A stretch of DNA of 64,000 bases, taken from the NCBI GenBank assembly GCA_017432825.1, contig JAFRIJ010000003.1, positions 73,187 through 137,186 of the forward strand. The letters run 5' to 3'. Source of the DNA: Bacilli bacterium. GTDB taxonomy: Bacteria > Bacillota_I > Bacilli_A > RF39 > UBA660. How positions within the stretch are numbered: position 1 is the stretch's first letter; the number at the start of each line of letters is the position of its first letter. Below the pieces are notes generated by a model. That model did no database searches, was not told the origin of the DNA, and was given only the letters and a program-made list of their open reading frames with translations. A program made the translations under genes and the position numbers. This document shows positions 1 through 64,000 of this stretch, one piece after another.

Positions 1-953
1 AAGAATTTGGGAATGTTAAGGATGTTAATATTAAAGATGATTATATTAAGATGATTACATCTTCTATTAATCTTGGAGATAGAAAAATTAAAGTTGTATA
101 TGATTGTGGTAATGGAACTACTTCTATAATTGCAGATGATATATTTAATATATTTAAAGATAAATTAGATTTAGTTCCTTTATTTAATGATAGCGATTCT
201 GATTTTCCTAATCATCATCCTGATCCTGCTGTTGAAGAAAATTTAACTAAGTTAAAGGAAAAGGTATTGGAAGTTGGTGCAGATGTTGGTGTAGCTTATG
301 ATGGTGATGGAGATAGAGTTGGCGTTATTGATAATAATGGTAATATGGTTGATATTGATAAATATATGATTATTATTTGGAGAGATTTAGTTAATAGAGA
401 TGTTACTAAGAAAACTTTTTATGATATTAAATGTGGTCTTTGTTTAAAGGATGAATTAGATAAATTAGGAATAGAGAATGAGTATTATAGGACTGGTAAT
501 TCTTATACTAAATTAAAAAGTTATGAGGGTAATTATCCTTTTAGTGGGGAATTATCTGGTCATGTATTTTTTAGAGATAAGTTTAATGGATATGATGATG
601 GAATATATGCATCTTTAAGACTAATTGAAATTCTTACAAATACTTATAAGAGTGTTGAAGAATTACTTTTAGGTATTAATAAATACTATACTACTCCTGA
701 GATAAAAGTAGGAGTATCTGATGATATTAAATTTAATATAATTGATAAAATTAGAGAGTATTGTGAAAAAAATAATTATAATATTATTACTATAGATGGT
801 GTTAAAGTTTTCTTTGATGATGGATCTGCTTTGGTTAGAGCATCTAATACTGGTCCTAATATTACTATGAGATTTGAAGCTAGAAGTGAAGAAAGGTTAG
901 AAATAATAAAGGATGAATTTATTAATTTGGTTAATAAATATGTTGAAGATTAA
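1..953 (+). CDS. Phosphomannomutase/phosphoglucomutase (5' part outside window)
   Basis: Motifs YDCGNG, FPNHHPDP, metal loop DGDGDR, GELSGH, VRASNTGP; frame is open to the window edge. Confidence 0.9.
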   Translation, partial: EFGNVKDVNIKDDYIKMITSSINLGDRKIKVVYDCGNGTTSIIADDIFNIFKDKLDLVPLFNDSDSDFPNHHPDPAVEENLTKLKEKVLEVGADVGVAYDGDGDRVGVIDNNGNMVDIDKYMIIIWRDLVNRDVTKKTFYDIKCGLCLKDELDKLGIENEYYRTGNSYTKLKSYEGNYPFSGELSGHVFFRDKFNGYDDGIYASLRLIEILTNTYKSVEELLLGINKYYTTPEIKVGVSDDIKFNIIDKIREYCEKNNYNIITIDGVKVFFDDGSALVRASNTGPNITMRFEARSEERLEIIKDEFINLVNKYVED

Positions 954-954
954 G

Positions 955-1527
955 ATGAAGAATATTATTAGTTTATTATTTATATTGTTTCTTTCTGTTT
1001 CTTTGTGTGCATGTAGTAATAATAGTATAAGTGGATTACATCATGTTAAGATTAGTATTATAGATTATGGTGATATTGAAATAGAGCTTGATGGTAATAA
1101 TGCGCCTGTTACTGTAGATAATTTTATTACTTTGGTTAAGGATGGATTTTATGATGGACTTACTTTTCATAGAATAATTAATGGTTTTATGATTCAGGGA
1201 GGAGATCCTGATGGTACTGGTTTTGGAGGATCTAGTAAAACTATTAAAGGTGAGTTTGCTGCTAATGGATATAATAATTCTATTAAGCATGTAAGAGGTG
1301 TTATTTCTATGGCTAGAAGTAATGATTACAATAGTGCTAGTAGTCAATTTTTTATAGTTCAAGAGGATAGTTCTCATTTAGATGGATTATATGCTGCTTT
1401 TGGGCATGTTACTAGTGGAATGGATATAGTTGATAAGATTGCTAAAGAAGTAAAGGTAGAAGATAATAATGGTACTGTTTTAAAGGAAAATCAACCTGTT
1501 ATTTCTAAAATAGAGTATTTGGATTAA
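955..1527 (+). CDS. Cyclophilin-type peptidyl-prolyl cis-trans isomerase, probable lipoprotein
   Basis: FYDGLTFHRIINGFMIQGGDP, SMAR, SQFFI, LDGLYAAFG; signal peptide with lipobox LCAC; ATG 955 preferred. Confidence 0.9.
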   Translation: MKNIISLLFILFLSVSLCACSNNSISGLHHVKISIIDYGDIEIELDGNNAPVTVDNFITLVKDGFYDGLTFHRIINGFMIQGGDPDGTGFGGSSKTIKGEFAANGYNNSIKHVRGVISMARSNDYNSASSQFFIVQEDSSHLDGLYAAFGHVTSGMDIVDKIAKEVKVEDNNGTVLKENQPVISKIEYLD

Positions 1528-1643
1528 AAAGTATATATATTATGCTTTTTAATTTTTTTTAAATCTAATATTAATTTTTAGTAAATTATTATTTTTTGGT
1601 AGGTGGTTATGTTATAATTTTTATATGATTAGGAGGTATATTT

Positions 1644-3827
1644 ATGTATGCTAGTGTTATTGTGGAGATTGGTGCTAAGAATGTTGATAGAACTTTTACA
1701 TATAGAGTGCCTTCTGATATGAAATCTTTTATTAAGATTGGTTCTAGGGTTAAGGTTAGTTTTGGTAAACAATTACTAGAGGGGTTTGTACTAGATTTAT
1801 TTAATGATATAGATAGTTGTGATTATGAAATAAAGGATATTATTGAGCTCGTTGATAAGAAACCTATTTTAAATGAAGAAATGTTAGAATTAGGTAAGGA
1901 AATTAGTAATTATACTTTATGTTCTTTGATTAGTGCTTATCAGGTAATGCTTCCTAAAGCATTAAAGGCTAGTTATGATACTAATATTAGTATTAAAACA
2001 AATAAATATTTAATATTAAATTGTAGTATTAATGATGCTAATAACTATCTTGTTAAGTGTAGATATGATGGACAGATTGATATTTTAAATAATATTATTA
2101 ATAATAAAGAAATTAAGATTAATAGAGTTGATAGTTCCGTTAAGACTTTAATTAAACATGGAATAGTTAAAATTATAGAAAAAGAATCTTATAGGTATAG
2201 ATATACTAGTAATAATAATGATTGTAGACATATTTTAAATGATGAACAAGAATATGCTGTTAAAAGGGTTTGCGATTGTTTTAATAAGTCTTCTACTTTT
2301 TTATTATATGGTGTTACTGGTAGTGGTAAAACTGAAGTATATATGAATATTATTGATAAGGTTGTCAATATTGGTAAGAGTGCTATAATGTTAGTTCCTG
2401 AGATTAGTTTAACTCCTCAAATTGTTGATAGATTTGTATCTAGGTTTGGTGATAAAGTTGCAATTCTTCATTCTGGTTTATCAGATGGTGAGAGATATGA
2501 TGAATATAGAAAAATAGTTAATGGGGAAGTATCTATTGTAGTTGGGGCAAGAAGTGCTATATTTGCTCCTTTAAAAGATATTGGAGTTATTATTATTGAT
2601 GAAGAACATTCTAGTACTTATAAGCAGGATAATAATCCTAGATATCATGCTAGAGATGTTGCTTTATTTAGATGTAAGTATCATAGTTGTCCTTTGGTAT
2701 TAGGTAGTGCCACACCATCTTTAGAGAGTATGGCTAGAGCGGGTAATAAGGTATATGAGCTTATTACATTAAAGAGACGTGCTAGTGGGGGATCTTTACC
2801 TAATGTATGTATTGTTGATATGAAAAATGAGATTAAACAAGGTAATTATATTTTTTCTTCTGTATTAGATAAAAAAATAAAAGAGAAACTTAGTAAGAAA
2901 GAACAAATTATTTTATTTTTAAATAGAAGAGGGTATTCTTCTATATATACTTGTAATACTTGTGGTAATGTTAGTAAGTGTCCTAATTGCGATATTAGTT
3001 TAACTTATCATAAATCTAGTGGAATGCTTAGATGTCATTATTGTGGTTATGCTATACGTAAATATAGTGAATGTCCTAATTGTCATAGTAAAGATTTAAT
3101 AGATTATGGTCTTGGTACTGAACAATTAGAAGAAGAACTTGTAAAAAGATATAAAGCTAGAGTTGTTAGAATGGATATGGATACTACTTCTAAAAAAGGA
3201 ACTCATCAGAAGATTATTGATGAATTTGGCAATTATAAATATGATATTTTAATTGGTACTCAGATGGTATCTAAAGGACTTGATTTTCCTATGGTTACTT
3301 TGGTTGGCGTTATTAATGCAGATGCTAGTTTAAATATTCCTGATTTTAGAAGTAGTGAAAGAACTTTTCAATTGTTATGTCAGGTTAGTGGTAGAGCGGG
3401 TAGATCTATAAGAGATGGAGAGGTTGTTATTCAATCTTATAATAATAATCATTATAGTATTATGTTAGCGAAGAATCATGATTATTTATCGTTTTATATG
3501 GAAGAAATGAAAATTAGAAAACAACTTAATTATAGTCCTTATTATTATATTATTTTAGTTAATATTATGAGTAAAGATTATGAATATAGTTTTAGTGAAG
3601 CTAAAAAAATTGGAGAATTTCTTAGAACTAATTTGAGTGATGATACATTTGTTTTAGGACCTGCTATGGCTAATCCTTTTAAAGTTAATAATGTATATCA
3701 CCATCAATGTATTATTAAATATAAGAAAGATAATAAATTAAGGGATACTTTAATTATGTTAGATAATCATTATAAGTTTAATAATAAAATTAATGTTGAA
3801 ATAGATATTGATCCTAATAAGTGTTGA
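1644..3827 (+). CDS. priA: Primosomal protein N' (PriA)
   Basis: GVTGSGKTEVY, DEEH, LGSATPS, two CxxC Zn knuckles, QVSGRAGR; AGGAGG RBS. Confidence 0.96.
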   Translation: MYASVIVEIGAKNVDRTFTYRVPSDMKSFIKIGSRVKVSFGKQLLEGFVLDLFNDIDSCDYEIKDIIELVDKKPILNEEMLELGKEISNYTLCSLISAYQVMLPKALKASYDTNISIKTNKYLILNCSINDANNYLVKCRYDGQIDILNNIINNKEIKINRVDSSVKTLIKHGIVKIIEKESYRYRYTSNNNDCRHILNDEQEYAVKRVCDCFNKSSTFLLYGVTGSGKTEVYMNIIDKVVNIGKSAIMLVPEISLTPQIVDRFVSRFGDKVAILHSGLSDGERYDEYRKIVNGEVSIVVGARSAIFAPLKDIGVIIIDEEHSSTYKQDNNPRYHARDVALFRCKYHSCPLVLGSATPSLESMARAGNKVYELITLKRRASGGSLPNVCIVDMKNEIKQGNYIFSSVLDKKIKEKLSKKEQIILFLNRRGYSSIYTCNTCGNVSKCPNCDISLTYHKSSGMLRCHYCGYAIRKYSECPNCHSKDLIDYGLGTEQLEEELVKRYKARVVRMDMDTTSKKGTHQKIIDEFGNYKYDILIGTQMVSKGLDFPMVTLVGVINADASLNIPDFRSSERTFQLLCQVSGRAGRSIRDGEVVIQSYNNNHYSIMLAKNHDYLSFYMEEMKIRKQLNYSPYYYIILVNIMSKDYEYSFSEAKKIGEFLRTNLSDDTFVLGPAMANPFKVNNVYHHQCIIKYKKDNKLRDTLIMLDNHYKFNNKINVEIDIDPNKC

Positions 3828-3879
3828 CTTTTTTTAAAAATTGTAATATAATCGGTTATTATTTTTATTTGGAGGATAT

Positions 3880-5328
3880 ATGAGTATTACGGTTAAAGAT
3901 TTTTTTGATAAAGTCAATAGTTATAATGCTGAAAGTTTTGCAGATGTTAAACGTGCTTATGAACTTGCCGAAAGACTTCATAAGGGACAATATAGACAAA
4001 GTGGTGAGGAGTATATAACTCATCCGTTGGAAGTTGCCTATATTTTGGCTGATATGTATGTAGATAGTGCTACTTTATGTGCTGCTTTACTCCATGATAC
4101 AGTAGAAGATACTGATATTACTTTAGATGAAATTAGAGAAATATTTAATGATGATGTTGCTACTTTGGTTGATGGTGTTACTAAGATTAGTAAATTGAAT
4201 TTTTCTTGTGCTAGTGATGAACATAATGCTAATATGAGAAAAATTATTACAAGTATTACTAAAGATATTAGAATTATTATTATTAAACTTGCTGATAGGC
4301 TTCATAATATGAGAACTTTGCAATATAAGAGTCATGAGAAGCAAATTGAAAATTCAAAGGAAACAATGGATTTATATGTTAATTTAGCTTATAATATTGG
4401 AGCATATAAGATAAAAAGAGAATTAGAGGATTTATCTTTTAAGTATATTAATAATTGTGAATATAATAGAATTAATGAAAAGAGAAGTAGTATTATATTA
4501 AAAAATAAAGATGTTATTAATGAGATGAATAGCAATATTAAGAGAGAATTATATAATTATGGTATTTTTTGTAATAGTAGTATTTTATATAAAAATGTTT
4601 ATGGTATATATAAGCATCTAATTAATGGAAATAATATTAATTATTTAGATGATTTGGTATCTTTAATTTATACAATGGATGATAAGATTGATTGTTATAC
4701 TTCCTTGGGAATAGTTCATGATTTATATAGGCCTATTAATGATAAGATTAGAGATTATATTAGTAGACCTAAGACTAATATGTATAGTTCTTTACATACT
4801 ACTGTTTTTGGACTTAATAATACTTTAGTTAAGATTTTAATTAGAACTAATGCAATGGATAAAGTTGCTAATAATGGTATTTGTGCTTATTGGGATATGT
4901 ATAGAGGGGGAGCTAGAGTTAGAATGCAAAATGATATTGAGAGTAAATATCAATTTTTTAATTCTATTGTACAAATAAATGATATGTTTCCTAATAATAG
5001 TGATTTTGCTAAAAAAGTTAATGATGAATTATTTAGTAATAAAATTTATGTTTATACTATTTCTGGAGATGTTGTTGAACTTCCTATTGGTTCTACTGTA
5101 TTAGATTTTATGTATAAGTGTGATCTTAATAAGGATAATTCTGTTTGTACCGCATTAGTTAATAATATTTTGGTTGATTTAAATTATGTTTTACAAGATA
5201 ATGATAAGATTATGTTAATTAATAACAAAGCTTTAGTTAATCCTAATGTAGAGTGGGAAAAGGATGTTAAAACTTCTTTAGCTAAGAAAAAAGTAAGAGA
5301 ACTAAGTAATTATTTGTTGACAAAATAA
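3880..5328 (+). CDS. RelA/SpoT homologue: intact HD hydrolase, degenerate synthetase, TGS-like domain, no ZFD/ACT
   Basis: RQSGEEYITHP, HDTVED, KLADRLHNMRT; synthetase region DYISRPK..YSSLHT but KILIRT in place of EIQIRT. Confidence 0.85.
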   Translation: MSITVKDFFDKVNSYNAESFADVKRAYELAERLHKGQYRQSGEEYITHPLEVAYILADMYVDSATLCAALLHDTVEDTDITLDEIREIFNDDVATLVDGVTKISKLNFSCASDEHNANMRKIITSITKDIRIIIIKLADRLHNMRTLQYKSHEKQIENSKETMDLYVNLAYNIGAYKIKRELEDLSFKYINNCEYNRINEKRSSIILKNKDVINEMNSNIKRELYNYGIFCNSSILYKNVYGIYKHLINGNNINYLDDLVSLIYTMDDKIDCYTSLGIVHDLYRPINDKIRDYISRPKTNMYSSLHTTVFGLNNTLVKILIRTNAMDKVANNGICAYWDMYRGGARVRMQNDIESKYQFFNSIVQINDMFPNNSDFAKKVNDELFSNKIYVYTISGDVVELPIGSTVLDFMYKCDLNKDNSVCTALVNNILVDLNYVLQDNDKIMLINNKALVNPNVEWEKDVKTSLAKKKVRELSNYLLTK

Positions 5329-5345
5329 TAATATTATAATATAAT
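5317..5345 (+). promoter_or_regulatory. SigA promoter of infC-rpmI-rplT
   Basis: TTGACA (5317-5322), 17 nt spacer, TATAAT (5340-5345). Confidence 0.8.
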
Positions 5346-5478
5346 ATTTGACGAAGTGAAGGAAAGAAGATTTATTTATCTCACCCGATTGTCTTAGATA
5401 ATGGGTTAAAAGCCAATAAATTATTATAGTTTTATTGTTTTTTTGTGAGATGAATACTGTCTTTGGTATTCATTTTTG
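5346..5478 (+). ncRNA. L20 leader (autoregulatory RNA of infC-rpmI-rplT)
   Basis: Position upstream of infC; AGAAG..TCTCACCCGATTG..GGGT resembles the Bacillus L20 leader; ends in hairpin ATGAATAC..GTATTCAT followed by a T-run. Confidence 0.65.
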
Positions 5479-5496
5479 TTTGTGGAGGTGTTTGTT

Positions 5497-6018
5497 ATAG
5501 TAAATAATAAAGATAACTTAATTAATGAACAAATTAGGTGTAAAGAAATGATGGTTATTGGACCTAATGGGGAACAGTTAGGTATTAAGAGTAGACAGGA
5601 TGCTTTAACTTTAGCGGGTTATGCTGGATTTGATTTGGTTTTAATGAATGAAAGTTCTAATCCACCTGTATGTAAGATTATGGATTTTAATAGATTTAAA
5701 TATGAAAAAAAGAAAAAAGCTAAGGAAGCATTGAAGAAACAACGTGAAGCTATTGTTGATATTAAAGAATTTAGATTATCTGTTACAATTGATAAACATG
5801 ATTTTGATACTAGGGTTAATAATGCTAAAAAGGCTCTTTTAAGAGGAGATAAAGTTAAGGTAACTATTCGCTTTAAAGGACGTCAAATTGCTCATCCTGA
5901 GCTTGCTACTGACGTTTTGGTTAAATTTGAAGAAGCTTTAAATGATGTAGCGGAAGTTGAAATTAAACCTAAGATGGAAGGTAGAAGTATCTTTATGCAA
6001 TTAACACCAAAAAAATAA
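5497..6018 (+). CDS. infC: Translation initiation factor IF-3 (non-AUG start ATA)
   Basis: INEQIR, PPVCKIMD, KVKVTIRFKGRQ; GGAGGTG RBS 6 nt before in-frame ATA 5497, typical of infC. Confidence 0.95.
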   Translation: MVNNKDNLINEQIRCKEMMVIGPNGEQLGIKSRQDALTLAGYAGFDLVLMNESSNPPVCKIMDFNRFKYEKKKKAKEALKKQREAIVDIKEFRLSVTIDKHDFDTRVNNAKKALLRGDKVKVTIRFKGRQIAHPELATDVLVKFEEALNDVAEVEIKPKMEGRSIFMQLTPKK

Positions 6019-6038
6019 AAACAAAAGGAGAATTAATT

Positions 6039-6254
6039 ATGGCAAAGAAAATTAAAATGAAGAAAAACAAAATGAAAACTCATAAGGGTTTAAAGAAAGT
6101 ATTAAATATTAGACAAAGTGGCTCTATTTCTGTTTCTAGTCAAGGTGTTCGTCATAATACTGGTAAGAATAGTGCTAAGAGAAGTAGACAAAAGAGAAAA
6201 AATAATGTTTTAAATAATTCTGATTTTAAGAGAGTTAAGAGTTTAGTTAAGTAG
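6039..6254 (+). CDS. rpmI: 50S ribosomal protein bL35 (divergent)
   Basis: KMKTHKG motif; lies between infC and rplT. Confidence 0.9.
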
Positions 6255-6268
6255 AGGAGGATGTTAGT

Positions 6269-6778
6269 ATGACGAGAGTTAAGGGTGGCACAGTTGCACG
6301 TGCAAGAAGAAAAAAAGTATTAAAAGAAGCAAAGGGTTACTTTGGTAGTAAGCATAGATTATATAAGACTGCACATGAACAAGTTATGCATTCTGGTCAA
6401 TATGCTTTTAGAGATAGAAGACAAAATAAAAGAAACTTTAGAAAATTATGGATTACTAGAATTAATGCTCAATGTCGTGAAAATGAGATTAGTTATTCTA
6501 AATTTATTAATGGATTAAATAAAGCTGGAATTACTATTAATAGAAAGATGTTAGCAGAGCTTGCTATAGATCAAAAGGAAGCTTTTAGTGATTTAGTAAG
6601 TATTTCTAAAGATGCTTTAGCAGGTAAGAGTTATACTCCTAAAACTGTAAAAGCTGAAGTTAAAGAAGAAAAGAAAGAGACTGTTAAAAAGTCTACTGCT
6701 AAGAAAGAAACTGTAAAAAAGGAAACAACTAAGAAGCCTGCTACTAAGAAAACTACTACTAAGAAAGAAAGTAAATAA
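6269..6778 (+). CDS. rplT: 50S ribosomal protein bL20 with Lys/Thr-rich C-terminal extension
   Basis: [34 protein letters not shown]; ~50 extra aa of KKET/KKTT repeats. Confidence 0.96.
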
Positions 6779-6797
6779 GCATCATCTGATGCTTTTT
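6777..6797 (+). terminator. Intrinsic terminator after rplT
   Basis: AAGCATCA-TC-TGATGCTT followed by a T-run. Confidence 0.7.
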
Positions 6798-6852
6798 ATT
6801 TGACTTTTTTGTTAATTTGTAGTAAAATATCTAATCACTTAGGGGTGATAAT

Positions 6853-7644
6853 ATGAGTAATAGTAAACAAATAAATAGATTAAGATATTTATCTACTGTT
6901 TTAGGTATGTCTTTTGTTATTGGGTTTACTGGTTGTGGTAAAACTAATGATATGTCTTTTGGTAAAACAATGTATGGAGTTTGTGATAATACTTGTTTTG
7001 ATGAATTAGTGGGTAATGATTATATTAAATTATTATCTAATTTAGAATTATATCTTGAGTGTTCTGATAGTTTAAATAATTTTAGTTTGGAGGATAACAC
7101 TATCTCTACTGATTATAGAAATTGTCAATTGTTTGATGCTGATTATTTATTATCTTTAATTGAAGATTATGAAAATAAAGATTATAACACTTATTCTAAA
7201 GATGAACTAAATAATATTTTATATATTCAAAATAAATTAGTTAATGAACATATTTATTTTAATGGATATGATGTTGTTTCTTATGGTGCATTAATGGGAG
7301 TTAAAGCTTCTATTGCTGATACTGTTGGATTAACTTATGAAGAAGCTAAAAATATTAAAATTATGAATAAGAAAGATTTTGATACTGTTGCTACTGATTT
7401 TAATCCTACTATTAATATTAATGTTGGTAATGATATTGTTGATATTGGAAAATGTAGTGAGCTTGTTGATTTAATTTATATTAATTATGATGTTCAAACT
7501 AATGCTAGTAAGGTAAGTCCTGATGCTAGACCAGTATATAATAAAGATAGAAACAAATTATTGAAAGATGCTATAAATAAATTAAAAATATGTTTAACTT
7601 CTGAATATAAAATTGATCAGAAAAGAAGAATTAAAAATAAGTAA
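6853..7644 (+). CDS. Hypothetical protein, probable lipoprotein
   Basis: Signal peptide ending FTGC; own promoter TTGACT-17-TAAAAT (6800-6828) and RBS. Confidence 0.7.
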   Translation: MSNSKQINRLRYLSTVLGMSFVIGFTGCGKTNDMSFGKTMYGVCDNTCFDELVGNDYIKLLSNLELYLECSDSLNNFSLEDNTISTDYRNCQLFDADYLLSLIEDYENKDYNTYSKDELNNILYIQNKLVNEHIYFNGYDVVSYGALMGVKASIADTVGLTYEEAKNIKIMNKKDFDTVATDFNPTININVGNDIVDIGKCSELVDLIYINYDVQTNASKVSPDARPVYNKDRNKLLKDAINKLKICLTSEYKIDQKRRIKNK

Positions 7645-7699
7645 AAAATAGCTAGTATTTTAGCTATTTTTTTTGTATAATATTATTATAGGTGATAAT

Positions 7700-9466
7700 A
7701 TGATTGGGAAGATAATTAGTATTATGGGGAATGAGGTTAAAATTAAACTAGAAACTAATGTTTATAATCTTGATAATATTATGGGTAAAAATGTTATTTT
7801 TGAAGATAATAATTTAAAAATTGTAGGAGAGATTATAGAGGGTGATTATACTTATCTTAATATTAAAATTATTGGTGAAATAACTAATAATAATTTTATA
7901 TATGGTAGTATGATTAGGCCTTCTTTTAATGATGTTTGTCGTTTTATTACTAAAGAAGAATTAGATATTGTTTTTCAAAATGATCCTAATACTAACTTAA
8001 TATCTTTAGGAGAATCTGTTATATATAGAAATTATAAGATTTCATTAGATGTTAATACTTTCTTTTCTAATCATTTTGCTATTTTAGGAAATAGTGGTGC
8101 TGGTAAGAGTTATTCAGTTTCTCATATTTTACAGAATGTTTTTTATGAGGCTAAAAATAAGCTTCCTTTTAGGACTAATATTTTTCTTTTTGATGCATAT
8201 GGAGAATACCAACCTGCTTTCTTTGAAATAGGTAAGAATAATTCAAATATTAATTATAAAGTTGTTACTACTGATTTAAATAATAATGAATTTACTCATC
8301 TAAGTATTCCTTTTTGGTTACTTACTACTGATGATATTGCATTGCTTCTTAATTGTGATGATGAAAATCAGGTACCTATTATTGAAAAGGCTTTAAAGTT
8401 AGTTGCGTTTTTTACTCAAGATGAAGAAAAGGTTCTTGATCAAAAGAATGATATTATTGCTAGAAGTGTTTTGGATATTATATTTTCAGGTAAGAGTCCA
8501 AGTGAAATTAGGAATCAACTTACTTCTGTTTTGACTAAGTTTCAAACTAAGGATATAAATTTGGAAATACCACTTACTAAAGGTGGTTGGACAAGGACTA
8601 TTAGACAATGTTTATATATTGAGGAATCTGGAAAATTTGCTGATATTGAATTAGTTATTGAATATTTAGAGACTTTTACTAATAATGAATTTGAACTTTC
8701 TATGCCAGATGGTAGTTTTGCTTATGGTCTTAAGGAATTTGCTTTAGCATTGGAGTTTGCTTTAATTAGTGAAGGTATTTTGACTAGTCAAAAGATATTT
8801 AATTATGCTAATGTACTTAGAATTAGATTAAATACTTTAATTAATAGTGATTATGCTAAATTTTTTGAATATCCTGTATTTGTTAATAGAGAGGGATTTA
8901 TTAGGGAGCTTCTTACTGTTTCTGGTAATAGAAAAGCTCAAATAATTAATTTTAATATTAATTATGTTGATGATAGATTTGCTAAAAATTTAGTTAAGAT
9001 ATATTCTAAATTGTTATTTGATTATGTTGCTAAATTAAAGAATAGGGGGTCTGTTGCTTTTCATATTTTATTAGAAGAAGCTCATAGGTATGTACAAGAT
9101 GATATTGATGTTAGGTTATTTGGATATAATATATTTGAAAGAATTACTAAAGAGGGTAGAAAGTATGGTATATTATTAGGACTTATTACTCAGAGACCTT
9201 CTGAGTTATCTGAAACCGCTATTAGTCAATGTAGTAATTTCTTGATTTTTAAGATGTTTCATAATGATGATTTAGCTTTTATATCTTCTTTGCTACCTAA
9301 TATTAATAGTGATTTTATTTCTAGACTTAAGACGTTTCACTCTGGTATGTGTGTGGCGTATGGTAGTGCTTTTAAAATGCCAGTTATAGTTAAGATTGAT
9401 GAACCAAATCCTGTTCCTTTGAGTCAGAATGTTGATATATCTAAAACTTGGTATGTTAATCAATAG
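7700..9466 (+). CDS. HerA-like (DUF87) ATPase
   Basis: N-terminal HAS-barrel-like region, Walker A GNSGAGKS, Walker B LLEEAH, RITKEGRKYG, TQRPSEL. Confidence 0.85.
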   Translation: MIGKIISIMGNEVKIKLETNVYNLDNIMGKNVIFEDNNLKIVGEIIEGDYTYLNIKIIGEITNNNFIYGSMIRPSFNDVCRFITKEELDIVFQNDPNTNLISLGESVIYRNYKISLDVNTFFSNHFAILGNSGAGKSYSVSHILQNVFYEAKNKLPFRTNIFLFDAYGEYQPAFFEIGKNNSNINYKVVTTDLNNNEFTHLSIPFWLLTTDDIALLLNCDDENQVPIIEKALKLVAFFTQDEEKVLDQKNDIIARSVLDIIFSGKSPSEIRNQLTSVLTKFQTKDINLEIPLTKGGWTRTIRQCLYIEESGKFADIELVIEYLETFTNNEFELSMPDGSFAYGLKEFALALEFALISEGILTSQKIFNYANVLRIRLNTLINSDYAKFFEYPVFVNREGFIRELLTVSGNRKAQIINFNINYVDDRFAKNLVKIYSKLLFDYVAKLKNRGSVAFHILLEEAHRYVQDDIDVRLFGYNIFERITKEGRKYGILLGLITQRPSELSETAISQCSNFLIFKMFHNDDLAFISSLLPNINSDFISRLKTFHSGMCVAYGSAFKMPVIVKIDEPNPVPLSQNVDISKTWYVNQ

Positions 9467-9469
9467 GAT

Positions 9470-9498
9470 TTGACATTGTATTTATTAAATGTTAAAAT
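9470..9498 (+). promoter_or_regulatory. SigA promoter of hisS-argS
   Basis: TTGACA, 17 nt spacer, TG-n-TAAAAT. Confidence 0.75.
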
Positions 9499-9531
9499 AC
9501 ATTGTCATATTATATATGAAAAGGTGATGTT

Positions 9532-53861: not shown

Positions 53862-53862
53862 A

Positions 53863-54135: not shown

Positions 54136-54136
54136 T

Positions 54137-54556: not shown

Positions 54557-54608
54557 ATTATCACCTGATATTTCTATCATAGCATTTTTATTTTTATTAT
54601 ACAAGTTA

Positions 54609-55193: not shown

Positions 55194-55250
55194 TTGTTTA
55201 CCTACTTTCTTTTTGAATTATATCATATATATAATAAAAAAGCAATTTTG

Positions 55251-55868
55251 TTATTGCTTTTTTTCTTCTTCTAAATTTTTCTCCATTAATGATTTTATTT
55301 CTTCATATAGTTTTTTATTTGCTGTTTCTAAATCCATATCTCCTACTTTAAATGGTTCTCCATATCTTATGGTTAAATTTTTACTTCTAAATTTGTAATC
55401 TCCTGTTAATCCAAATGGTACTATAGTTGCGTTTGTTTTTTTGGCCATTGATACTGTTCCAAATTTAAATGGTAATAGGAATACATCTTTTGTTTTATTT
55501 CTTGTTCCTTCTGGAAATAATCCTATTGCTCCATCATTTCTTAATATTTCTAATGCTTGTTCTGTAGCGTGCGTATCTTTTATTTGTCTATTTACTGAAA
55601 TACAACCTACTAATTTAAAAAACCATGCCATTTTACCATCAAAGTATTCTTTTTTAGCCATGTAATGGATTATTCTATGTGTTGCCATTATAGTTAGACA
55701 TTGATCATATACGTGTTTATGATTTCCTGCTATTAGTATTGGACCTTTTTTAGGTATTACTTTTTTATTAATTATGGTTGGATTATAATATAGTCTAAAT
55801 AATACTCTCATTATTGGAGTTAACATGAAATATCCTATTTCACCTTTAAATCTTTTTTTCTTCTTCAT
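55251..55868 (-). CDS. PlsC-family acyltransferase 2
   Basis: NHKHVYD (HX4D), FPEGTR. Confidence 0.9.
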   Translation of the reverse strand: MKKKKRFKGEIGYFMLTPIMRVLFRLYYNPTIINKKVIPKKGPILIAGNHKHVYDQCLTIMATHRIIHYMAKKEYFDGKMAWFFKLVGCISVNRQIKDTHATEQALEILRNDGAIGLFPEGTRNKTKDVFLLPFKFGTVSMAKKTNATIVPFGLTGDYKFRSKNLTIRYGEPFKVGDMDLETANKKLYEEIKSLMEKNLEEEKKQ

Positions 55869-57627
55869 TTTTCGCTCTCTTTTCTATATTTTCTTGTTGT
55901 AGCTTTTTAAAATCTACTTTTCCTACTATTGTTTTGGGAAGACTTTTTCTAAATTCCCATTCTTTTGGTATAGCATATTGTGCTAAATTTTTTTTACATA
56001 ATTCAATTAAGTCTTTTTTTAATTTTGGAGATGCTATATGTCCTTTTTTTAGTGCTATATATGCTTTTCCTACTTCTATTTTATATGGATGTGGTATACC
56101 TATTACTGTTGCATCCATAACTGCTGGATGTTGTTCTAAAACTTCTTCTATTTGTGATGGATATACATTGTATCCTGATGTAACTATCATTCTTTTTATT
56201 CTCTGTTTATAAGATACGAAACCATCTTCATCCATACAACCTATATCTCCTGAATGTAACCATATATTACCATCTTTATGTATGTGTAATGCATCGTTTG
56301 TTTCTCTTTCGTTGTTGTAATATCCTAACATGACAACTGGACCACATATGCATATTTCTCCATCAGTTCCATATGGGACTTCTTCATCCGTTGCTGGTTT
56401 TACTATTTTTAAATATATTCCTGGCCATGGAATTCCAATTGTTCCTGGACGTGAAGCATGTTTTAAATCTACACATACTGCTGCTACGGCTTCAGTCATT
56501 CCATAACCTTGAATCATATTTGTTTTGGCTCCGTGTTCATGTAAAAAGTCGTTTATTTTATTTACTCTTGTTTTATTTAAGGTATCTCCTCCTGCTATTA
56601 CGTATTTTAATTGTGATAGAGATACGTTTTTCATTCTTTCGTTTGTTGTTAATGCTTCAAATAATGTTGGCACTCCTAGTAATACTGTTGGTTTATGTTT
56701 AGTTAGTAATTTATCAAATTCTTTTGCTTTAAATGTTGGAATCATTACTAATTCTGCTCCTACATATAAGGCGTCATTCATTCCAACTTCTAATCCTAGT
56801 CCATGAAATATTGGTAATATTCCTAATATCTTATCATTTTTGCATAAATCTGGATATGCTTTTGTTGCTGCTATGGTTGCTGAATTGAAATTACCATTTG
56901 ATAGTACTATTCCTTTTGGTGTTCCTGTTGATCCTCCACTTTGCAATATTACAGCTGGAGTGTCTTTTGTTCCTTGCTCTTCTATATTTTTTTCTGTATA
57001 TTTAATTCCTTTTTGATAAAATTCTTTCCAATATATATATAATTCAGTTGATTTTGGTCTTTCTACTTTCCTTCCTTGAGTTAATTCGTAACCTATTTTA
57101 GTTATTACATTCATCGAATCTTTAGCGGATATTATTATTGTTTTGTATACATTTGTTTCATTTATTATATTTTTTATTTTACTATAACATATATCTAATG
57201 CTATTAATACTACTGATGAATAATTCTCTAGAGCTTGTTTTATTTCTTGCTCTGATAATAACGGGTGTAATATGTTTACTACTGCTCCAATTTTATTTAG
57301 TGCATAAAAAGATATTAATGCTTCAGGAACATTAGCAGATAATATTGTTACTATATCTCCTTTTCTTATTCCTTGTGATTTAAAAGCTTTAGCTGTAATA
57401 TTAATTTCTTTAAAGAAATCGTTATATGTTCTATGTGTTCCAAAATATGTTATTGCTATATTATTATCATAATGTTCTTCTTTGACTTTATCTCTTAAAA
57501 ATCTATATATTGATTTATTTGGTGGAGATATATTCATATCATTTTTTTTATAATATTTTTCCCAAGGTGCTTTTGGTTTCGTTTTAAATCCTAGAAATTT
57601 GAAAAAACTTATGTCCATTAGTCCCAT
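55846..57627 (-). CDS. Long-chain fatty-acid--CoA ligase, paralog 2
   Basis: QSGGSTGTPKG, GYGMTE, HSGD, LPKTIVGK. Confidence 0.9.
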   Translation of the reverse strand: MGLMDISFFKFLGFKTKPKAPWEKYYKKNDMNISPPNKSIYRFLRDKVKEEHYDNNIAITYFGTHRTYNDFFKEINITAKAFKSQGIRKGDIVTILSANVPEALISFYALNKIGAVVNILHPLLSEQEIKQALENYSSVVLIALDICYSKIKNIINETNVYKTIIISAKDSMNVITKIGYELTQGRKVERPKSTELYIYWKEFYQKGIKYTEKNIEEQGTKDTPAVILQSGGSTGTPKGIVLSNGNFNSATIAATKAYPDLCKNDKILGILPIFHGLGLEVGMNDALYVGAELVMIPTFKAKEFDKLLTKHKPTVLLGVPTLFEALTTNERMKNVSLSQLKYVIAGGDTLNKTRVNKINDFLHEHGAKTNMIQGYGMTEAVAAVCVDLKHASRPGTIGIPWPGIYLKIVKPATDEEVPYGTDGEICICGPVVMLGYYNNERETNDALHIHKDGNIWLHSGDIGCMDEDGFVSYKQRIKRMIVTSGYNVYPSQIEEVLEQHPAVMDATVIGIPHPYKIEVGKAYIALKKGHIASPKLKKDLIELCKKNLAQYAIPKEWEFRKSLPKTIVGKVDFKKLQQENIEKRAKNEEEKKI

Positions 57628-57628
57628 A

Positions 57629-58213
57629 TTATTTTTTCTCCTTTTTTAGTTTTTTACTAATTATATTTTCTAGTTCTTCATTATATTCTGTTAAATCTTC
57701 TTTTTTTGGTATTTCTATTGGTTCTAAAAATTCTATTTTTAAACCTTTATTTCCTATTTTATATTCTCCTGTTATTATAAATGGTACTATTTTTGTATTA
57801 GTAACACTTGCCATTTTTACTGCACCTATTTTAAATGGTATTATTGTGTTATCAGTTCTATTTATTGTCCCTTCGGGGAATATTCCTATTACTTTATCAT
57901 TATTTAGTACATCTATTGCTTTTTGTAAAGCATCTTTATCATGTATTCTTCTATTTACAGGTATAATTCCCATATTTAAGAATAATCCTTTTTTAAATCC
58001 TTGTACTAATTCATCTTTTGCTAAGAAATGTATTGTTCTTTTAGTAGATGTTATTAGTAATACACAATCTAAATTGTTTGTATGGTTACCTGCTAATACA
58101 ACTTTTCCATCTTCTGGAATATTTTCAGTACCTATTATTTCTGGCTTATATAATATTTTTACTAAAAAAACTATTAATGGTCTTAATGTTTTATAAAGAA
58201 TTGGTTCTTTCAT
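57629..58213 (-). CDS. PlsC-family acyltransferase 1
   Basis: NHTNNLD (HX4D), FPEGTI. Confidence 0.9.
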   Translation of the reverse strand: MKEPILYKTLRPLIVFLVKILYKPEIIGTENIPEDGKVVLAGNHTNNLDCVLLITSTKRTIHFLAKDELVQGFKKGLFLNMGIIPVNRRIHDKDALQKAIDVLNNDKVIGIFPEGTINRTDNTIIPFKIGAVKMASVTNTKIVPFIITGEYKIGNKGLKIEFLEPIEIPKKEDLTEYNEELENIISKKLKKEKK

Positions 58214-58306
58214 TTATTCACCTTTTTTCTATGCATTTTAATTATATAATAGTTTTTTTTTATTGTAAAGTTAATAAAAAAACTTTAATAATTTTGTTAT
58301 TAAAGT

Positions 58307-58948
58307 TTATAATAAATCTTTGTTTTTAATTACGAATATATTATTATTTTTATAAAAGGCATAGAATACTTCTTCTAGTTTTATATTTTTATTTTTTAAT
58401 AATTTTATTACCCATTCTTCATCTTTGTTTAATTCTTTTAGTGTATCTTTTTCTATTCTGTTATCTAATATAAGTGGTAGTGGTAATTCTTTTTTTTCTT
58501 TTGTATAAGGAAATACTGATAGAGTTCCGTTGTTTTCTAAGATGGCATATTCTATTTCTTCTATATTTTTATATCCTTTTTCTCTTATTTGTGATATTAA
58601 ATCATCTAAGTTATATTTTTGTTTTGTCATTTCATGATAATTTATTTTTCCTTCTTTTATTATTACTGCCGGATTACCATCTAATGCTATTCTTAGTTTG
58701 GGGTTTTTAAGTGTTATATATGCTAAAGATATTTGTATTAAACATAGTGTTATTATTGGTATTATTGATTTAAATATGTTATTATCATAATTTTCTATGC
58801 TTATAACTGCTAATTCTGCTATTAGGATTGATACTATTAGATCTATTATTCCTAATTGACCTACTTCTCTTTTTCCCATTATTCTATATACTATAAATAT
58901 AAAAAAATAGAAGAAGAATGTTCTTATTATTATCATTAATAGTTCCAT
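58307..58948 (-). CDS. DUF421 (YetF/YrbG-like) membrane protein
   Basis: RIMGKREVGQL, LDGNP, AILENNGTLSV. Confidence 0.88.
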   Translation of the reverse strand: MELLMIIIRTFFFYFFIFIVYRIMGKREVGQLGIIDLIVSILIAELAVISIENYDNNIFKSIIPIITLCLIQISLAYITLKNPKLRIALDGNPAVIIKEGKINYHEMTKQKYNLDDLISQIREKGYKNIEEIEYAILENNGTLSVFPYTKEKKELPLPLILDNRIEKDTLKELNKDEEWVIKLLKNKNIKLEEVFYAFYKNNNIFVIKNKDLL

Positions 58949-59020
58949 TTTATCACCTATATTTATTATTTGCTATTATATTTTCTTTTATTCATCATAA
59001 TATTTATTAGGTGGTTTATT

Positions 59021-59374
59021 ATGAAAAAATTAATAATATCTTTAGGTTATTTCTTTATAATTTTATTTTCTTTATTATTAATTTATACTTTACTATTATA
59101 TTTTAATTTACTATCTAATAATATTCTTAATTATTTTAAATTATTAATTCCTCTTATTAGTATCTTATATAGTTCTTATATTTTAGGTAGAAAATCTGTT
59201 AAAAAGGGTTATCTAGAAGGTATGAAACTTGCTTTAATTATTATATTTATTTTTATTATTATTAATTTAATGTTTGATAGTTTTAATTATAAATCTATTC
59301 TTTATTATTTAATTATATTTATTTCTTCTTCTTTAGGTGCTATGATAGGTATAAATAGAAAAAAGAATATCTAG
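59021..59374 (+). CDS. TIGR04086 (YrzE-like) membrane protein
   Basis: Four TM helices, G..KKGYLEG, LGAMIGIN; divergent from DUF421 as in Bacillus yrzE/yrbG. Confidence 0.75.
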   Translation: MKKLIISLGYFFIILFSLLLIYTLLLYFNLLSNNILNYFKLLIPLISILYSSYILGRKSVKKGYLEGMKLALIIIFIFIIINLMFDSFNYKSILYYLIIFISSSLGAMIGINRKKNI

Positions 59375-59961
59375 TTATGATATTCTTTTTTTCTTTCTAA
59401 TATTTTTTTTAAATCTCTTTTTGGTGTTTTTTCATCTTTTACTACTTTACTATATTTGGTTTTTTCTAAATTTATTTCTTTACTTTCGTTATATATTTTT
59501 AGTTTGTGATTTAATTCTTCATATTTATTTATAAATTTATTCTTTGTTTCTAATTTTTTATCATCTATAGATAATTTTATAGCGGTTATTATTACTGGCA
59601 TTGATAATACATCTAATGCTATTCCGATATATCCTAATGTATTATATGTTTTTAATAGTGGTACTGATGAACCTAACATTAATATTCCAGTTAGTTTTAT
59701 TATGTTTAATCCTTTTATTTTTTTATCTTTTGATTTGTAATACTCATTATATTTATCTTTGCTTATTATTAAGTATTCATTTAAATCATTATAATAGTTT
59801 TGCATTAGTAATTCTTTGTTTAAAGATGTTTTTGGTACTTCTAGTATGTATTTTTCTTTTTTATTTGTTCCGTAGCGAGATACTAAATAGAATCTTTTGT
59901 TTTCATCTATTTTTGCTATGGTTCCTTTTTTCCCGTAATATGGTAATGTATAATTCATCAT
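59371..59961 (-). CDS. Hypothetical membrane protein
   Basis: 196-aa ORF, two central TM segments, GAGGTGA RBS. Confidence 0.65.
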   Translation of the reverse strand: MMNYTLPYYGKKGTIAKIDENKRFYLVSRYGTNKKEKYILEVPKTSLNKELLMQNYYNDLNEYLIISKDKYNEYYKSKDKKIKGLNIIKLTGILMLGSSVPLLKTYNTLGYIGIALDVLSMPVIITAIKLSIDDKKLETKNKFINKYEELNHKLKIYNESKEINLEKTKYSKVVKDEKTPKRDLKKILERKKEYHN

Positions 59962-60007
59962 ATCACCTCTTTTCTTTGTTTAGAGTTGATATTTTAACAT
60001 ATTTTTT

Positions 60008-60679
60008 CTATTTTGGCAAGTTTTTATATAAATTAATTTTATATAACGTTTTTATTTTATATAATATATATTTTTTGGGTATTAATTTATATATTTTATT
60101 TAATTTAATTAAATCTTCTTTGTTTTTATCTTTAAATAATATACTATTTTCTTTTAATAAATATGGTCCAAAATATAATTGCTTTCTGTTATATATTTTA
60201 CGTCCTTTTTTAAATTGTATTATGGTATATATTATATTTTTATCTTTTATTAATTTTTCTTTTTCAATGTAATAACCTATTTTTGTTATTTTTTTTCTTA
60301 AAAAATCTATATCATTATTACTTTGTAATATTAAGTTATCTATATTTTTTAATTTTTTTATATTTTTATATAATATACCTACTATAGTATGTGATCCCAT
60401 TCCTGCTATAATAATTGTGTTTATATTAGTGGTATCTATATTATCTAATCCATTGGTATGAATTGTTTTAATTTTATTATCTAATTTATTTTTTTTAAAG
60501 TTTTTTATTGCATTATTAAGTGCTTCTTTATTTATTTCAGTTGCTGTTATATTTATATTATTTTTATTTTGCATTAAATAGATATCTAATAATCCATGGT
60601 CACAACCTATATCTAGTATGTTTGTATTATCTTCTATAAATTCTGAAATAGATTTTAATCTTTCTGATATTTTAATCAT
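60008..60679 (-). CDS. trmK: tRNA (adenine(22)-N1)-methyltransferase
   Basis: [20 protein letters not shown]; follows rpoD. Confidence 0.9.
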
Positions 60680-61769
60680 TTAAGAAATCCTTTAATTTTC
60701 TACTCCTTGATGGATGTCTTAGTTTTCTTAGAGCTTTTGCTTCTATTTGTCTTATTCTTTCTCTTGTTACTCCAAACATTTGTCCAACTTCTTCTAGAGT
60801 TTTACATGAACCATCATCTAATCCAAATCTTAATCTTAATACTTGTTCTTCTCTTTCCGTTAATGTTAGTAGTACATCACTTATTTCATCTTTTAACATT
60901 TCATGAATTGTGTATTCTTCTGGAGACATGCTTCTTTCATCTTTTACAAAGTCTCCTAAGTGTGAATCATCTTCTTCACCTATTGGTGTTTCTAATGATA
61001 CTGGATCTTGAGCTATTTTTATTACTTCTCTTATTTTATCAACTGGTATACCCATTTTTTTAGCAAGTTCTTCATCTGTTGGTTCACGGTTTAATTCTAG
61101 TGTTAATTGTCTTTGATATCTTGATAATTTATTTATTGTTTCTACCATATGTACTGGTACTCTTATAGTTCTTGCTTGATCTGCAATCGCTCTTGTTATA
61201 GCTTGTCTTATCCACCATGTTGCATATGTAGAGAATTTATATCCTTTATTTGCATCAAATTTTTCTACTGCTTTCATTAATCCAATATTACCTTCTTGAA
61301 TTAAGTCTAGAAAAAGCATTCCTCTTCCTACATATCTTTTTGCAATACTTACTACTAAACGTAGATTTGATTCTGCTAAAATATTTTTAGCTTCTTCATC
61401 ACCATCAGCAATACGTTCTGATAATGCTGTTTCTTCCTCTAATGATAGTAAGCTTATTCTACCTATTTCTTTTAAATACATTCTTACGGGGTCGTTTATG
61501 GATATTTCTTTTGCAATTGTGTTATCTTTTAATATATCTTCAATATCCCCACCTGCATCGTCTGGTTGTCCTCCTAATTCAGATTCATCATTTACTATTT
61601 CTATATTATTTTCTATTAAGGAATTGTATAATTCATCTAGGGAATCTGAATCTATTTCTAATCCTTTTAATCTATTAGCAAGTTCTTCATAAGTTATATA
61701 TCCTTTTTCTTTACCTTTTTCTAGTAATTCATTTTTTCTTTCTTCAAATGTTTTTATTTCTTCTATCAT
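60672..61769 (-). CDS. rpoD: Primary sigma factor SigA/RpoD
   Basis: [54 protein letters not shown]. Confidence 0.98.
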
Positions 61770-63499
61770 TTCATGGTCACTCCTTTTAATTTAGATATTT
61801 CCATTGATATTTTAGCTTGTTTCATTGGATCTTTTTCTGTACTTAATTCAATGTTTAATTTTTCTATTCTTTTATTTTGATATTCTTCATTTATACATTT
61901 AATATAGTCTTCTATTTCTTCTTCTGTATACTCTTTTTTTAAGTTTAGATTTAGTATTTCCATAAATGTATCTGCTACATCAGTTTTGGTATTTAAATAT
62001 GTGACAAAATCTGCAATAATTATATTATTATATTTATGATAATAATAAATTAATTCATTAAATAATCTTCTTTTTTTATCATCTAATATCATTATTACTT
62101 TTTTTTCTGATTTATCTATTATACTAGGCGCTACGGCCATATAGTATAACAAATTATTTGTAGCTTGTCCATACTTATTTAATAAGCTTTTTTCTTTTAT
62201 TTTTACTTCTTGCTTACTAGTTTTAGTGTTCTTCTTTGTTATTTCATTATATTTATCATATCTTTCTTTTAAAGTTTCATAATTTACATTAAATTTTTTT
62301 TCTAGTTGTTTTAATGTTAATTCGATAGTTATTTCATCTTTTTCTTTAATTAATTCTTTAATTAATTCATCTATATATTTACTAATATCTTTTGTGTCAT
62401 TTAGATTTTTATTTTCTTTTAGTGTTTGCATCTTAAAATCCATTACACTCATTGGATTATTTACTTTATTTATAAATGCTTCTTTTCCTCTTTTTATAAT
62501 AAATTCATCTGGATCTTTTTCTTCTAATCTTATTATTTTAATATTTATATTTTCATTTTCAAGTAATGGTATTGCTCTTTCAGTTGCTGTTTTTCCTGCT
62601 TCATCTCCGTCAAAACATAATATTATATTATTAGTTATTTTTTTTAATGTTCTTATTTGTTTTGTTGTTAGGGCTGTACCCATTGGGGCTACACAATTAT
62701 TTATTCCTACTGTACTTGCTCTTATTACATCAAAGTACCCTTCCATTATTATTATAGAATTATCTTTTGATAATTTGTTATGTGCTCTATGATAGTTATA
62801 TAATATATTACTCTTATCAAATATTTTAGTTGATTTGGTATTTATATATTTACTTCCATCTTTTGTTTGATATATTCTTCCTCCAAAACCTATTGGGTTA
62901 CCATTCAAATCGTGTATTGGAATCATTATTCTATCTGAAAATACATCTGTTTCATTCGTATTTGATAATCCTAAATCTATTAAATCATTTATATCATATT
63001 TATTTTCTAGAAATTTTGTTATTGGTTGTCTTGCTATTGATAAACCTATTTCAAATTTTTTTATTGTATCTCTATCTATTTTTCTGTTTTCTAAATATTT
63101 TATGGCGTTATTTCCTAATGTACTGTTTATATTATTTTGATAAAATTTAATTGCTAAGTTCATTATTTCATAATCTTTTATATGAGGGTTTACGTAATTT
63201 GATACATTTCCTATGTTATATCCATCTTCTTTTGCTAATAATCTTATTGCGTCTCCATAGTTTATATTTTCCATTCCTGCTATAAAGTTAAATATATTTC
63301 CTGCTTTGTGGCATGCAAAGCATTGAAACATATCTAATTTAGTTGATACACTCATAGATGCATTATTATCAGGATGAAATGGGCAAAGACCCCAATAATC
63401 TTCACCTTTTTTAGTTAAACTTACATATCTTTCAACTATTTCTTTTATAGGATGTTTTCTTCTTATTTCGTTAATTGTTGCATCATCTATATATGCCAC
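61766..63499 (-). CDS. dnaG: DNA primase
   Basis: CPFH..CFAC zinc finger, [26 protein letters not shown]. Confidence 0.97.
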
Positions 63500-63565
63500 T
63501 TGTTATCACCCTCTAATAATAATATTCTACGTATAATTCGTATTTCCTTTTTTTTATTTAAATTT

Positions 63566-64000
63566 TTACTTTTTTGTTGTTAAAAACATAGCATCTCCAA
63601 AGGAAAAGAATCTGTAATTATTTTTAATTGCTTCATTATATGCATTAAATATTATTTCTTTACTACTGAATGCACTTACTAACATTATTAATGTTGATTT
63701 AGGTAAATGAAAATTTGTTATTAATCCATCTATTGCTTTATATTTATATCCTGGATATATAAATATATCTGTATTTCCACTGCAACCTTTAAATTCATTA
63801 TATTTTGTCATTATTGTTTCCAATGTTCTTGTTGTAGTTGTTCCTACTGCTATAATGTTTTTTCCTTCTTTTTTTGCTTTATTTAGTTCTTTAGCTACAT
63901 TTTCATCCATACTATAGTATTCTGAATGCATTTTGTGCTTAGTTACGTCTTCTACGTTTACTGGCCTAAATGTACCTAATCCTACATGTAATGTTATATA
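63566..64000 (-). CDS. queA: S-adenosylmethionine:tRNA ribosyltransferase-isomerase (5' part outside window)
   Basis: [41 protein letters not shown]. Confidence 0.95.

Follow-up and report, generated by a model that had tools for sequence, protein, structure and literature searches.

Silent-site composition follows one physical strand through both dnaA and dif in a gut Bacilli chromosome with two gene-oriented arms

What does it mean when the genes of a chromosome change direction at the terminus and their codon usage, read on one strand, does not? The question is raised by a 64,000-nucleotide stretch of a Bacilli genome (G000:C15:73187-137186; this whole stretch is hereafter called the window), in which two convergent gene blocks meet at a dif site. 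The source genome, G000, is a metagenome-assembled draft of 1,155,230 bp in 17 contigs with 25% GC, rated 93.5% complete and 0.15% contaminated. An earlier note on the window had placed a flip of gene orientation at ~34.3 kb and a dif site at 34943, and had proposed that the synonymous signature follows the physical strand and not the replichore, possibly because one fork direction crosses the whole region or because another strand-locked mutational process is at work. The flip is borne out by the open reading frames (ORFs) of at least 60 aa that we called, since 28 of 28 lie on the + strand to the left of ~34.3 kb and 28 of 32 on the - strand to the right of it, and at 34943 we find a 28-bp sequence resembling the Bacillus dif consensus. 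The features on which the argument depends are listed here, with proportions taken at 4-fold degenerate (4-fold) sites.

1..34301, + strand: left block, class A (genes on the G/T-rich strand), 28/28 ORFs, T.690 and A.249
34341..64000, - strand: right block, class B (genes on the A/C-rich strand), 28/32 ORFs
34737..35477: AT-rich non-coding spacer of 740 bp separating the convergent blocks
34943..34970, + strand: dif-like 28-mer (Xer recombination site) inside the AT-rich spacer
31683..34301, + strand: mutS, the final gene of the left block and the anchor for locating the junction in relatives
18840..19100, + strand: spoVS, with GCT for 11/14 Ala and ATT for 7/10 Ile
53863..54144, - strand: DUF1292 gene, with ATA for 8/9 Ile and ACA for 8/10 Thr
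59021..59374, + strand: DUF3792 gene on the minority strand of the right block, class A signature, GGT for 6/6 Gly

At 4-fold sites the + genes of the left block have A.249, C.022, G.039 and T.690 on the + strand, with T exceeding A in 27 of 28 genes, and the - genes of the right block, read on the same + strand, have A.226, C.023, G.047 and T.703, with T exceeding A in 25 of 28. The T/A skew of the + strand is +0.47 to the left of dif and +0.51 to the right, and there is no inversion at dif or the terminus. Read in coding sense, the median T/A skew of the majority genes is +0.56 on the left (n = 24) versus -0.57 on the right (n = 23; Mann-Whitney p = 7e-9). Since the computed skews keep the same + strand sign across dif, the proposal that the signature tracks the physical strand and not the replichore holds. 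All four + strand genes of the right block show T>A, i.e., the left-type signature, and the class A signature of the DUF3792 gene indicates that the effect tracks the strand and not the region. The AT skew of intergenic DNA on the + strand is negative on both sides of dif (-0.07 left, -0.23 right), whereas the intergenic GC skew does flip (+0.40 left, -0.18 right). Over all sites, the left half has a GC skew of ~ +0.4 and an AT skew of ~0, and the right half has ~ -0.15 and ~ -0.28, respectively, values obtained by adding a coding-strand term to a term of constant sign or subtracting it from that term. The hand counts of the earlier note for spoVS, for Thr in the DUF1292 gene and for the gene at 59021-59374 were reproduced exactly; only its 8/8 ATA in DUF1292 became 8/9 in the ORF as called here. 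Likewise, the described protein bias, with D/N/S/V/C on the left and K/E/I/T on the right, was seen in the window, and genome-wide it holds for every residue except N.

The pattern extends to the entire draft genome. In all 17 of the 17 contigs of G000, including the contig that carries dnaA and oriC, one strand is G/T-rich with no internal switch; the contigs cannot be oriented to one another, and this result holds within contigs. Each contig falls in one of two classes. In class A, comprising ~531 kb, ~90% of the genes are on the G/T-rich strand, and in class B, comprising ~592-618 kb, ~89% are on the A/C-rich strand, with contig all-site GC skews of |0.31-0.50| versus |0.14-0.19|. Only two contigs change class, both by a flip of gene orientation alone: C15, to which the window belongs, at the convergent dif junction, and C6 at a divergent junction with dnaA. 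Altogether 497 genes are on the G/T-rich strand versus 529 on the other, and the majority-strand genes of the two arms (436/487 and 478/539) all point from dnaA to dif. At 4-fold sites the 436 majority genes on the G/T-rich strand have A.241, C.017, G.043 and T.699, and the 478 majority genes on the opposite strand have A.648, C.053, G.029 and T.270, while the minority genes of either arm bear the signature of the strand that they occupy. Ribosomal-protein genes show the same skew values as the remaining genes. Proteins encoded on the G/T-rich strand are enriched in C, M, R, V, F, D and S, and those on the opposite strand in T, Q, E, I and K. Because the window straddles the dif end of this chromosome, it contains convergent blocks with opposite codon usage and shifted amino-acid content.

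To separate the contributions, genes were pooled by arm and strand, and the skews were solved for a coding term, an arm-symmetric term of the replication type, and a physical-strand term. For T/A in G000 the coding term is.03, the arm-symmetric term.01 [-.02,.03] and the physical-strand term.43 [.41,.45]. For G/C the corresponding values are -0.11, 0.18 and 0.35. A strong mutation pressure locked to one physical strand acts across the whole chromosome, and the strand carrying dnaA has G>C and, in this species, T>A at silent sites across both oriC and dif. The earlier note had argued that a simple inversion is insufficient as an explanation, and the genome-wide strand analysis and the decomposition lead to the same view.

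The origin itself is of the textbook Firmicute kind. On C6, mnmG-mnmE-jag-yidC-rnpA lie on one strand and dnaA-dnaN-recF on the other, and a search with a DnaA-box consensus places the densest cluster of the genome at C6:193953-194274, just upstream of dnaA, and a second cluster at C6:195652-195737, between dnaA and dnaN. Genes point away from each other at dnaA/oriC and towards each other at dif, and the arms are balanced, as is classically taken to define two replichores. Despite this architecture, the 4-fold T/A skew of the + strand of C6 is positive on both sides of dnaA, showing no inversion at the origin, and in G000 the polar sign is already present in the first genes left of oriC.

The relatives retrieved by a DnaA search are uncultured gut Bacilli, including entries named "Tenericutes UMGS," "Clostridium sp. 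CAG:302," "CAG:762," "CAG:914," and "Firmicutes CAG:321," which we take to be members of the order RF39; the public runs that hold the origin stretch (20 runs, 11 studies) are animal-gut samples. We took 80 dnaA loci with 10 kb on each side, of which 37 were informative, i.e., had enough sites in left - and right + genes. Among the 31 informative loci with a DnaA identity of at least 58%, the dnaA strand was keto-rich on both flanks in 29, an apparent inversion was seen in two, and the reverse polarity in none, while the six informative loci at 50-57% identity showed no consistent pattern (two of six keto-rich on both dnaA-strand flanks). The seemingly normal inversion at dnaA in L017 and L018 was rejected as a replication signal after analysis of G036, the genome of L018, in which all four gene classes prefer T over A in coding sense, with a G/C skew that is purely physical and non-inverting. 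As controls, five Bacilli of other families were examined; the 4-fold G/C skew inverts at dnaA in three of them (G026, G021, and G024), which demonstrates that the method is able to detect a normal replication inversion, and the remaining two have patchy gene orientation at dnaA.

The clearest relative is G031, whose DnaA is 61% identical and whose 1,232,343 bp are contained in four contigs with no switch within any of them. Its G/C 4-fold skew of ~ +0.65 continues through dnaA and a dif-like site, values of ~0.6-0.8 run along all four contigs with no positional gradient as judged by eye from unfitted data, and when the contigs are ordered C1, C2, C3 reversed and C4, a single G-rich strand runs round the whole circle. 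The G/C physical term is.64 in G031, ~.53 in G036 and ~.72 in G033, with arm-symmetric terms of.02, ~.06 and ~.02, so that the arm-symmetric term is ~0 in three of the four decomposed genomes. Within the clade the two skews are uncoupled: G/C is polar throughout, the polarity of T/A is strong in G000 and G007 and weak in G031 and G004, and in G036 and G033 the T/A skew is purely a matter of coding sense. The one-strand skew is a trait of the lineage.

Within the genus of G000, the succession of mutS, dif and convergent genes recurs in seven of eight genomes from other assemblies. The dif copy downstream of mutS is identical in G007 and has 1-3 mismatches in six other congeners, and the contig of the eighth congener stops 474 bases past mutS. 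Polarity is uniform across dif in G004:C1 (237 kb) and G012:C1 (189 kb). An apparent skew switch ~15-18 kb upstream of mutS in G004, G012, and G005 was dismissed as noise from few genes, the whole contigs of G004 and G012 being uniform. The arm that carries mutS is of class A in G000 and G007 and of class B in G004 and G002, indicating that polarity is fixed relative to dnaA, not to dif or mutS, and that segments swap arms and re-equilibrate.

A second property of the dnaA locus is a gene for a HerA-family ATPase of 584 aa with a DUF87 domain (G000:C6:192189-193943, +; L083:7689-9443), situated directly upstream of the DnaA boxes of oriC and co-oriented with dnaA. The closest solved relatives of its product are bacterial and archaeal HerA. 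A gene of this type is found at the same place in 56 of the 68 relatives with enough upstream sequence, at 66-92% identity, and it is absent upstream of dnaA in all seven distant loci (DnaA identity 52-56%) with enough upstream sequence as well as from the dnaA flanks of the five controls. Polar skew without this gene in the flank covered was seen in three relatives (L035, L043, and L044), and the correlation between HerA and skew rests on a single clade, so that shared descent could suffice to produce it. On the other side of dnaA, between dnaN and recF, there is a ComK-family gene (G000:C6:197028-197504; L083:12528-13004, +), which suggests natural competence in this reduced genome.

Which process would impose such a term? 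Judged by composition, effectively unidirectional replication is the best fit, and we favor it tentatively. It would require fork asymmetry of the usual kind, acting in the same rotational sense in both arms: a fork setting out from oriC through dnaA towards dnaN would copy the whole circle or almost all of it, and the leftward fork would be absent or arrested within ~1 kb. A single fork for the whole circle is favored because in sign (G>C, T>A) and in size the polar term matches an ordinary leading-strand signature, because the arm-symmetric term is ~0 and polarity goes with the direction in which oriC and dnaA face, and because the polar sign begins at the first gene left of oriC. One change, a single fork over the circle, would thereby account for sign, size, the missing arm-symmetric term, the link to dnaA and the start at oriC. 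The genes of the rnpA-side arm would then be transcribed head-on to the fork, among them three of the window, all on the A/C-rich strand.

60672..61769, - strand: rpoD, essential
61766..63499, - strand: dnaG, essential
50044..52680, - strand: ppdK

The two-arm gene orientation would in that case be kept by something other than conflict between fork and transcription, for example by segregation polarity towards dif.

Several observations weigh against a single fork, and most of them concern the architecture of the chromosome. The oriC is a classical two-part DnaA-box cluster flanking dnaA, PolC and DnaE are both encoded, and in G031 dif lies opposite dnaA, with arms of 625,860 and 606,483 bp if the contig order is as assumed; a single fork would not be expected to give dif so balanced a position. 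The arm-symmetric G/C term of G000, although small, is not zero. Further points come from comparing G000 with G031, a genome of another genus; the two share 660 reciprocal best hits with a mean identity of 56%. Gene order is broken into blocks of few genes, the distance of a gene from dnaA is unconserved outside the dnaA block (Spearman 0.01), and the strand class of an orthologue in one genome is independent of its class in the other (175/145/168/171, p =.21). The main ribosomal-protein operon is in class A in G000 and in class B, on the A/C-rich majority strand, in G031, and conserved genes were not enriched on the G/T-rich or the other strand in this comparison, their fraction being equal in both arms. 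Despite the scrambled order, ~89% of the genes in both arms are oriented from dnaA to dif. An orientation bias of this size under such rearrangement implies that it is actively maintained, including in the arm that would be head-on, and the unidirectional reading therefore needs a second assumption. In this respect the interpretation in the earlier note is partly supported: composition favors one fork direction, and chromosome architecture weighs against it.

The same architecture is the main argument for ordinary bidirectional replication from oriC to dif combined with a separate, origin-anchored polar process that exposes or damages one physical strand, an explanation that we regard as possible but somewhat more doubtful than a single fork. 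Examples of such a process would be conjugation-like single-stranded passage of the chromosome from a site beside oriC, perhaps via the HerA-type ATPase, or non-random inheritance of template strands. With two forks, an orientation towards dif kept in both arms under heavy rearrangement, a dif opposite dnaA, orthologues that swap strands freely, arms equal in conserved-gene content and the remaining arm-symmetric G/C term would all be in place; the HerA-type gene is, moreover, common upstream of dnaA in the relatives and absent in the distant group that lacks a consistent polar skew, and ComK is encoded nearby. However, we know of no such process in bacteria, and two coincidences would be needed: the strand component usual in Firmicutes would have to be lost, and another with equal sign and size acquired. 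The link between HerA and skew is, in addition, phylogenetically confounded, and L035, L043, and L044 are polar with no HerA gene in the fetched flank. In its specific form, two-fork replication with a non-replicative, origin-anchored process that has not yet been described (HerA-driven passage of single-stranded DNA or template-strand inheritance), the explanation appears improbable. Replication could also be bidirectional with an origin and terminus far from dnaA and dif, both skew switches being hidden in assembly gaps. G000 has 17 gaps and is 93.5% complete, and no 23S rRNA was found in G000, G007, G004, or G031, the rRNA operons probably sitting in gaps. But G031 has only four gaps and no internal switch over 1.23 Mb, the gaps would have to hide both switches in each genome examined, and whatever the contig order, about half of the genes would still be on the compositionally lagging strand, so we consider this quite unlikely.

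Two further explanations can be set aside with more assurance. As a draft assembled from a metagenome, the genome could in principle combine two organisms of opposite codon usage through a chimeric bin or a misjoined contig, and the earlier note had named a chimera as a possible source of the appearance. Contamination is, however, 0.15%, the class switch occurs inside two contigs, the junction of mutS, dif and convergent genes is present in seven of eight congeners from other assemblies, and the dnaA junction recurs in dozens of independent metagenome-assembled genomes; the window is not a chimera, and an artifact of this kind, to which we give next to no weight, is refuted for practical purposes. 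Codon-usage selection or transcription-coupled bias with no strand-locked mutation pressure is equally hard to credit. The T/A preference of G036 and G033 is indeed of that kind, being truly coding-sense with T>A in all four gene classes, but the G/C skew of these two genomes is still purely physical. In G000, moreover, minority genes carry a coding-sense signature opposite to that of their neighbors, the intergenic AT skew does not change sign at dif, and ribosomal-protein genes match other genes in their values. The absence of replisome or repair genes was also considered as a cause and rejected, since PolC, DnaE and UDG are present in trait genomes and controls alike.

Asymmetry between the two strands of an entire circle is familiar from animal mitochondria, in which strand-displacement replication makes heavy and light strands differ and one G/T-rich strand runs round the circle. 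In contrast to these, G031 shows no positional skew gradient, and the present chromosomes have 1.2 Mb, a DnaA-type origin and a full bacterial replisome. In the order UBA1400 of the candidate phyla radiation (CPR), comprising Candidatus Chazhemtobacterium Ch65, Collierbacteria and Beckwithbacteria, a G/C disparity over the whole chromosome with one C-rich strand led to a proposal of unidirectional replication (Kadnikov et al., 2020; PMC7143001). Here as there, either G or C predominates on one strand along the full length as a trait of the lineage, genes are split about equally between the strands (497/529 here), and, as in Ch65, the disparity in G031, G036, and G033 is mainly in G/C with little in T/A. 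Unlike in UBA1400, the all-site GC skew still inverts here, because a strong coding-strand effect masks the polar term, and two arms with a bias of ~89% meet at a classical dnaA-oriC and at dif. G000 further adds a very large T/A component, and the organisms are Bacillota of the animal gut.

SkewDB lists ~250 chromosomes with "asymmetric skew," in which the GC skew of one replichore is at least three times that of the other and which were found hard to explain (Hubert, 2022; PMC8941118), and other Firmicutes show the usual strand component in that resource. With GC skews of ~0.40-0.45 versus 0.15, the present genome has the ratio of at least three that marks this category. SkewDB gives neither a decomposition nor an explanation, whereas here the skew resolves into an arm-symmetric coding term and a non-inverting physical-strand term. 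Strand-specific codon usage is also known from Borrelia, where the skew changes sign at the origin and the two kinds of genes are those on the majority and those on the minority strand within each replichore (Joesch-Cohen et al., 2018; PMC6042203). Class A genes resemble Borrelia leading-strand genes in their large GC skew and a T/A skew near 0, class B genes resemble Borrelia lagging-strand genes in a large excess of A over T and a small GC skew (~0.15 here, near 0 in Borrelia), and amino-acid content shifts with class in both; unlike in Borrelia, each class here is the majority of one entire arm. The literature searched yielded no account of this pattern for RF39-like Bacilli. One study (10.1101/2022.02.09.479829) has classed the skew plots of three complete RF39 genomes, which may bear on the pattern.

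Replication direction is conventionally read from strand skew, and selection against head-on collisions from gene orientation. Throughout a family of common gut bacteria these two indicators disagree over half of the chromosome, and ordinary two-fork replication does not predict half of the genes on the compositionally lagging strand. If replication is unidirectional, a cellular chromosome with a canonical DnaA origin would be copied by one fork, with ~89% of the genes of one arm head-on to it, including ribosomal-protein operons, rpoD and dnaG. If two forks and a separate process are at work, a polar process so far unknown would outweigh replication in shaping base composition. Either outcome would alter how skew is interpreted. 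A physical-strand term added to a coding term may also explain the asymmetric-skew chromosomes of SkewDB, for which a shared cause is a hypothesis, and a general caution follows, namely that all-site GC-skew plots of acceptable appearance can conceal a physical-strand term.

The remaining content of the window is as follows.

Left block, + strand: priA, relA/spoT, infC-rpmI-rplT, HerA-like, hisS, argS, addB-like, spoVS, aspS, clpX-like, murD, tig, mutS
Right block, - strand: miaA, acyl-CoA ligases, prs, ppdK, yceG, DUF1292, rpoD, dnaG
19621..23616, + strand: 1331-aa repeat protein (List_Bact_rpt), a compositional outlier without the strand signature, T/A 4-fold skew -0.07
47684..50037, - strand: three adjacent genes (HAD-IIB hydrolase and two small ORFs) without the strand signature, T/A skews -0.09, -0.12 and 0.00

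The scanning intervals of 20001-24000 that fall inside the List_Bact_rpt gene have a GC content of 0.28-0.33 versus ~0.25, and the gene is probably a recent arrival whose composition has not yet equilibrated. Contig C8 and islands at C4:62-66 kb and C6:19-26 kb resemble the signature-less genes at 47684-50037. At C17:1-5000 the first six genes have a T/A skew near 0 or opposite to the rest with constant orientation, which is too few genes for a switch to be called. The HerA-like gene of the window (7673-9466, +) is a paralogue of the one beside dnaA, with 42% identity, and G000 and G031 each have exactly two such paralogues. Directly upstream of it is a 263-aa ORF (6853-7644, +) with no Pfam match, a possible candidate for a NurA-like nuclease partner.

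PolC is unusually long in two of the genomes, with an open frame of 1575 aa in G000 (G000:C14:9527-13615, -) and 1554 aa in G031 (G031:C3:91275-95276, +), compared with 1426-1461 aa in G026, G021, and G036. The family-model match is split in the long forms, suggesting insertions, and length does not track the trait, since G036 has a PolC of normal length. In G000 only ~50 kb separate the main ribosomal-protein operon (C15:46-60 kb) from dif, and in G031 the operon (C2:282-296 kb) is far from dnaA. Translation genes are not clustered near the origin, as slow growers would be expected to show. Between G000 and G031 we saw no symmetric-inversion (X) pattern beyond the colinear dnaA block and no faster evolution of the genes on either strand. 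By a hand tally of the aragorn list, in which tmRNA is included and genes are clustered, tRNA genes number 9 on the G/T-rich strand versus 23 on the other in G000, and 14 versus 20 in G031, which on account of the clustering yields no useful signal. Finally, a search for KOPS- and Chi-like motifs returned arm-polar and strand-polar 7- and 8-mers with skews of up to ~0.9, nearly all of which are explained by composition; the best arm-polar oligomer was GAAAGAG, with observed/expected counts of 126/88 and 124/50, which may be a coding effect.

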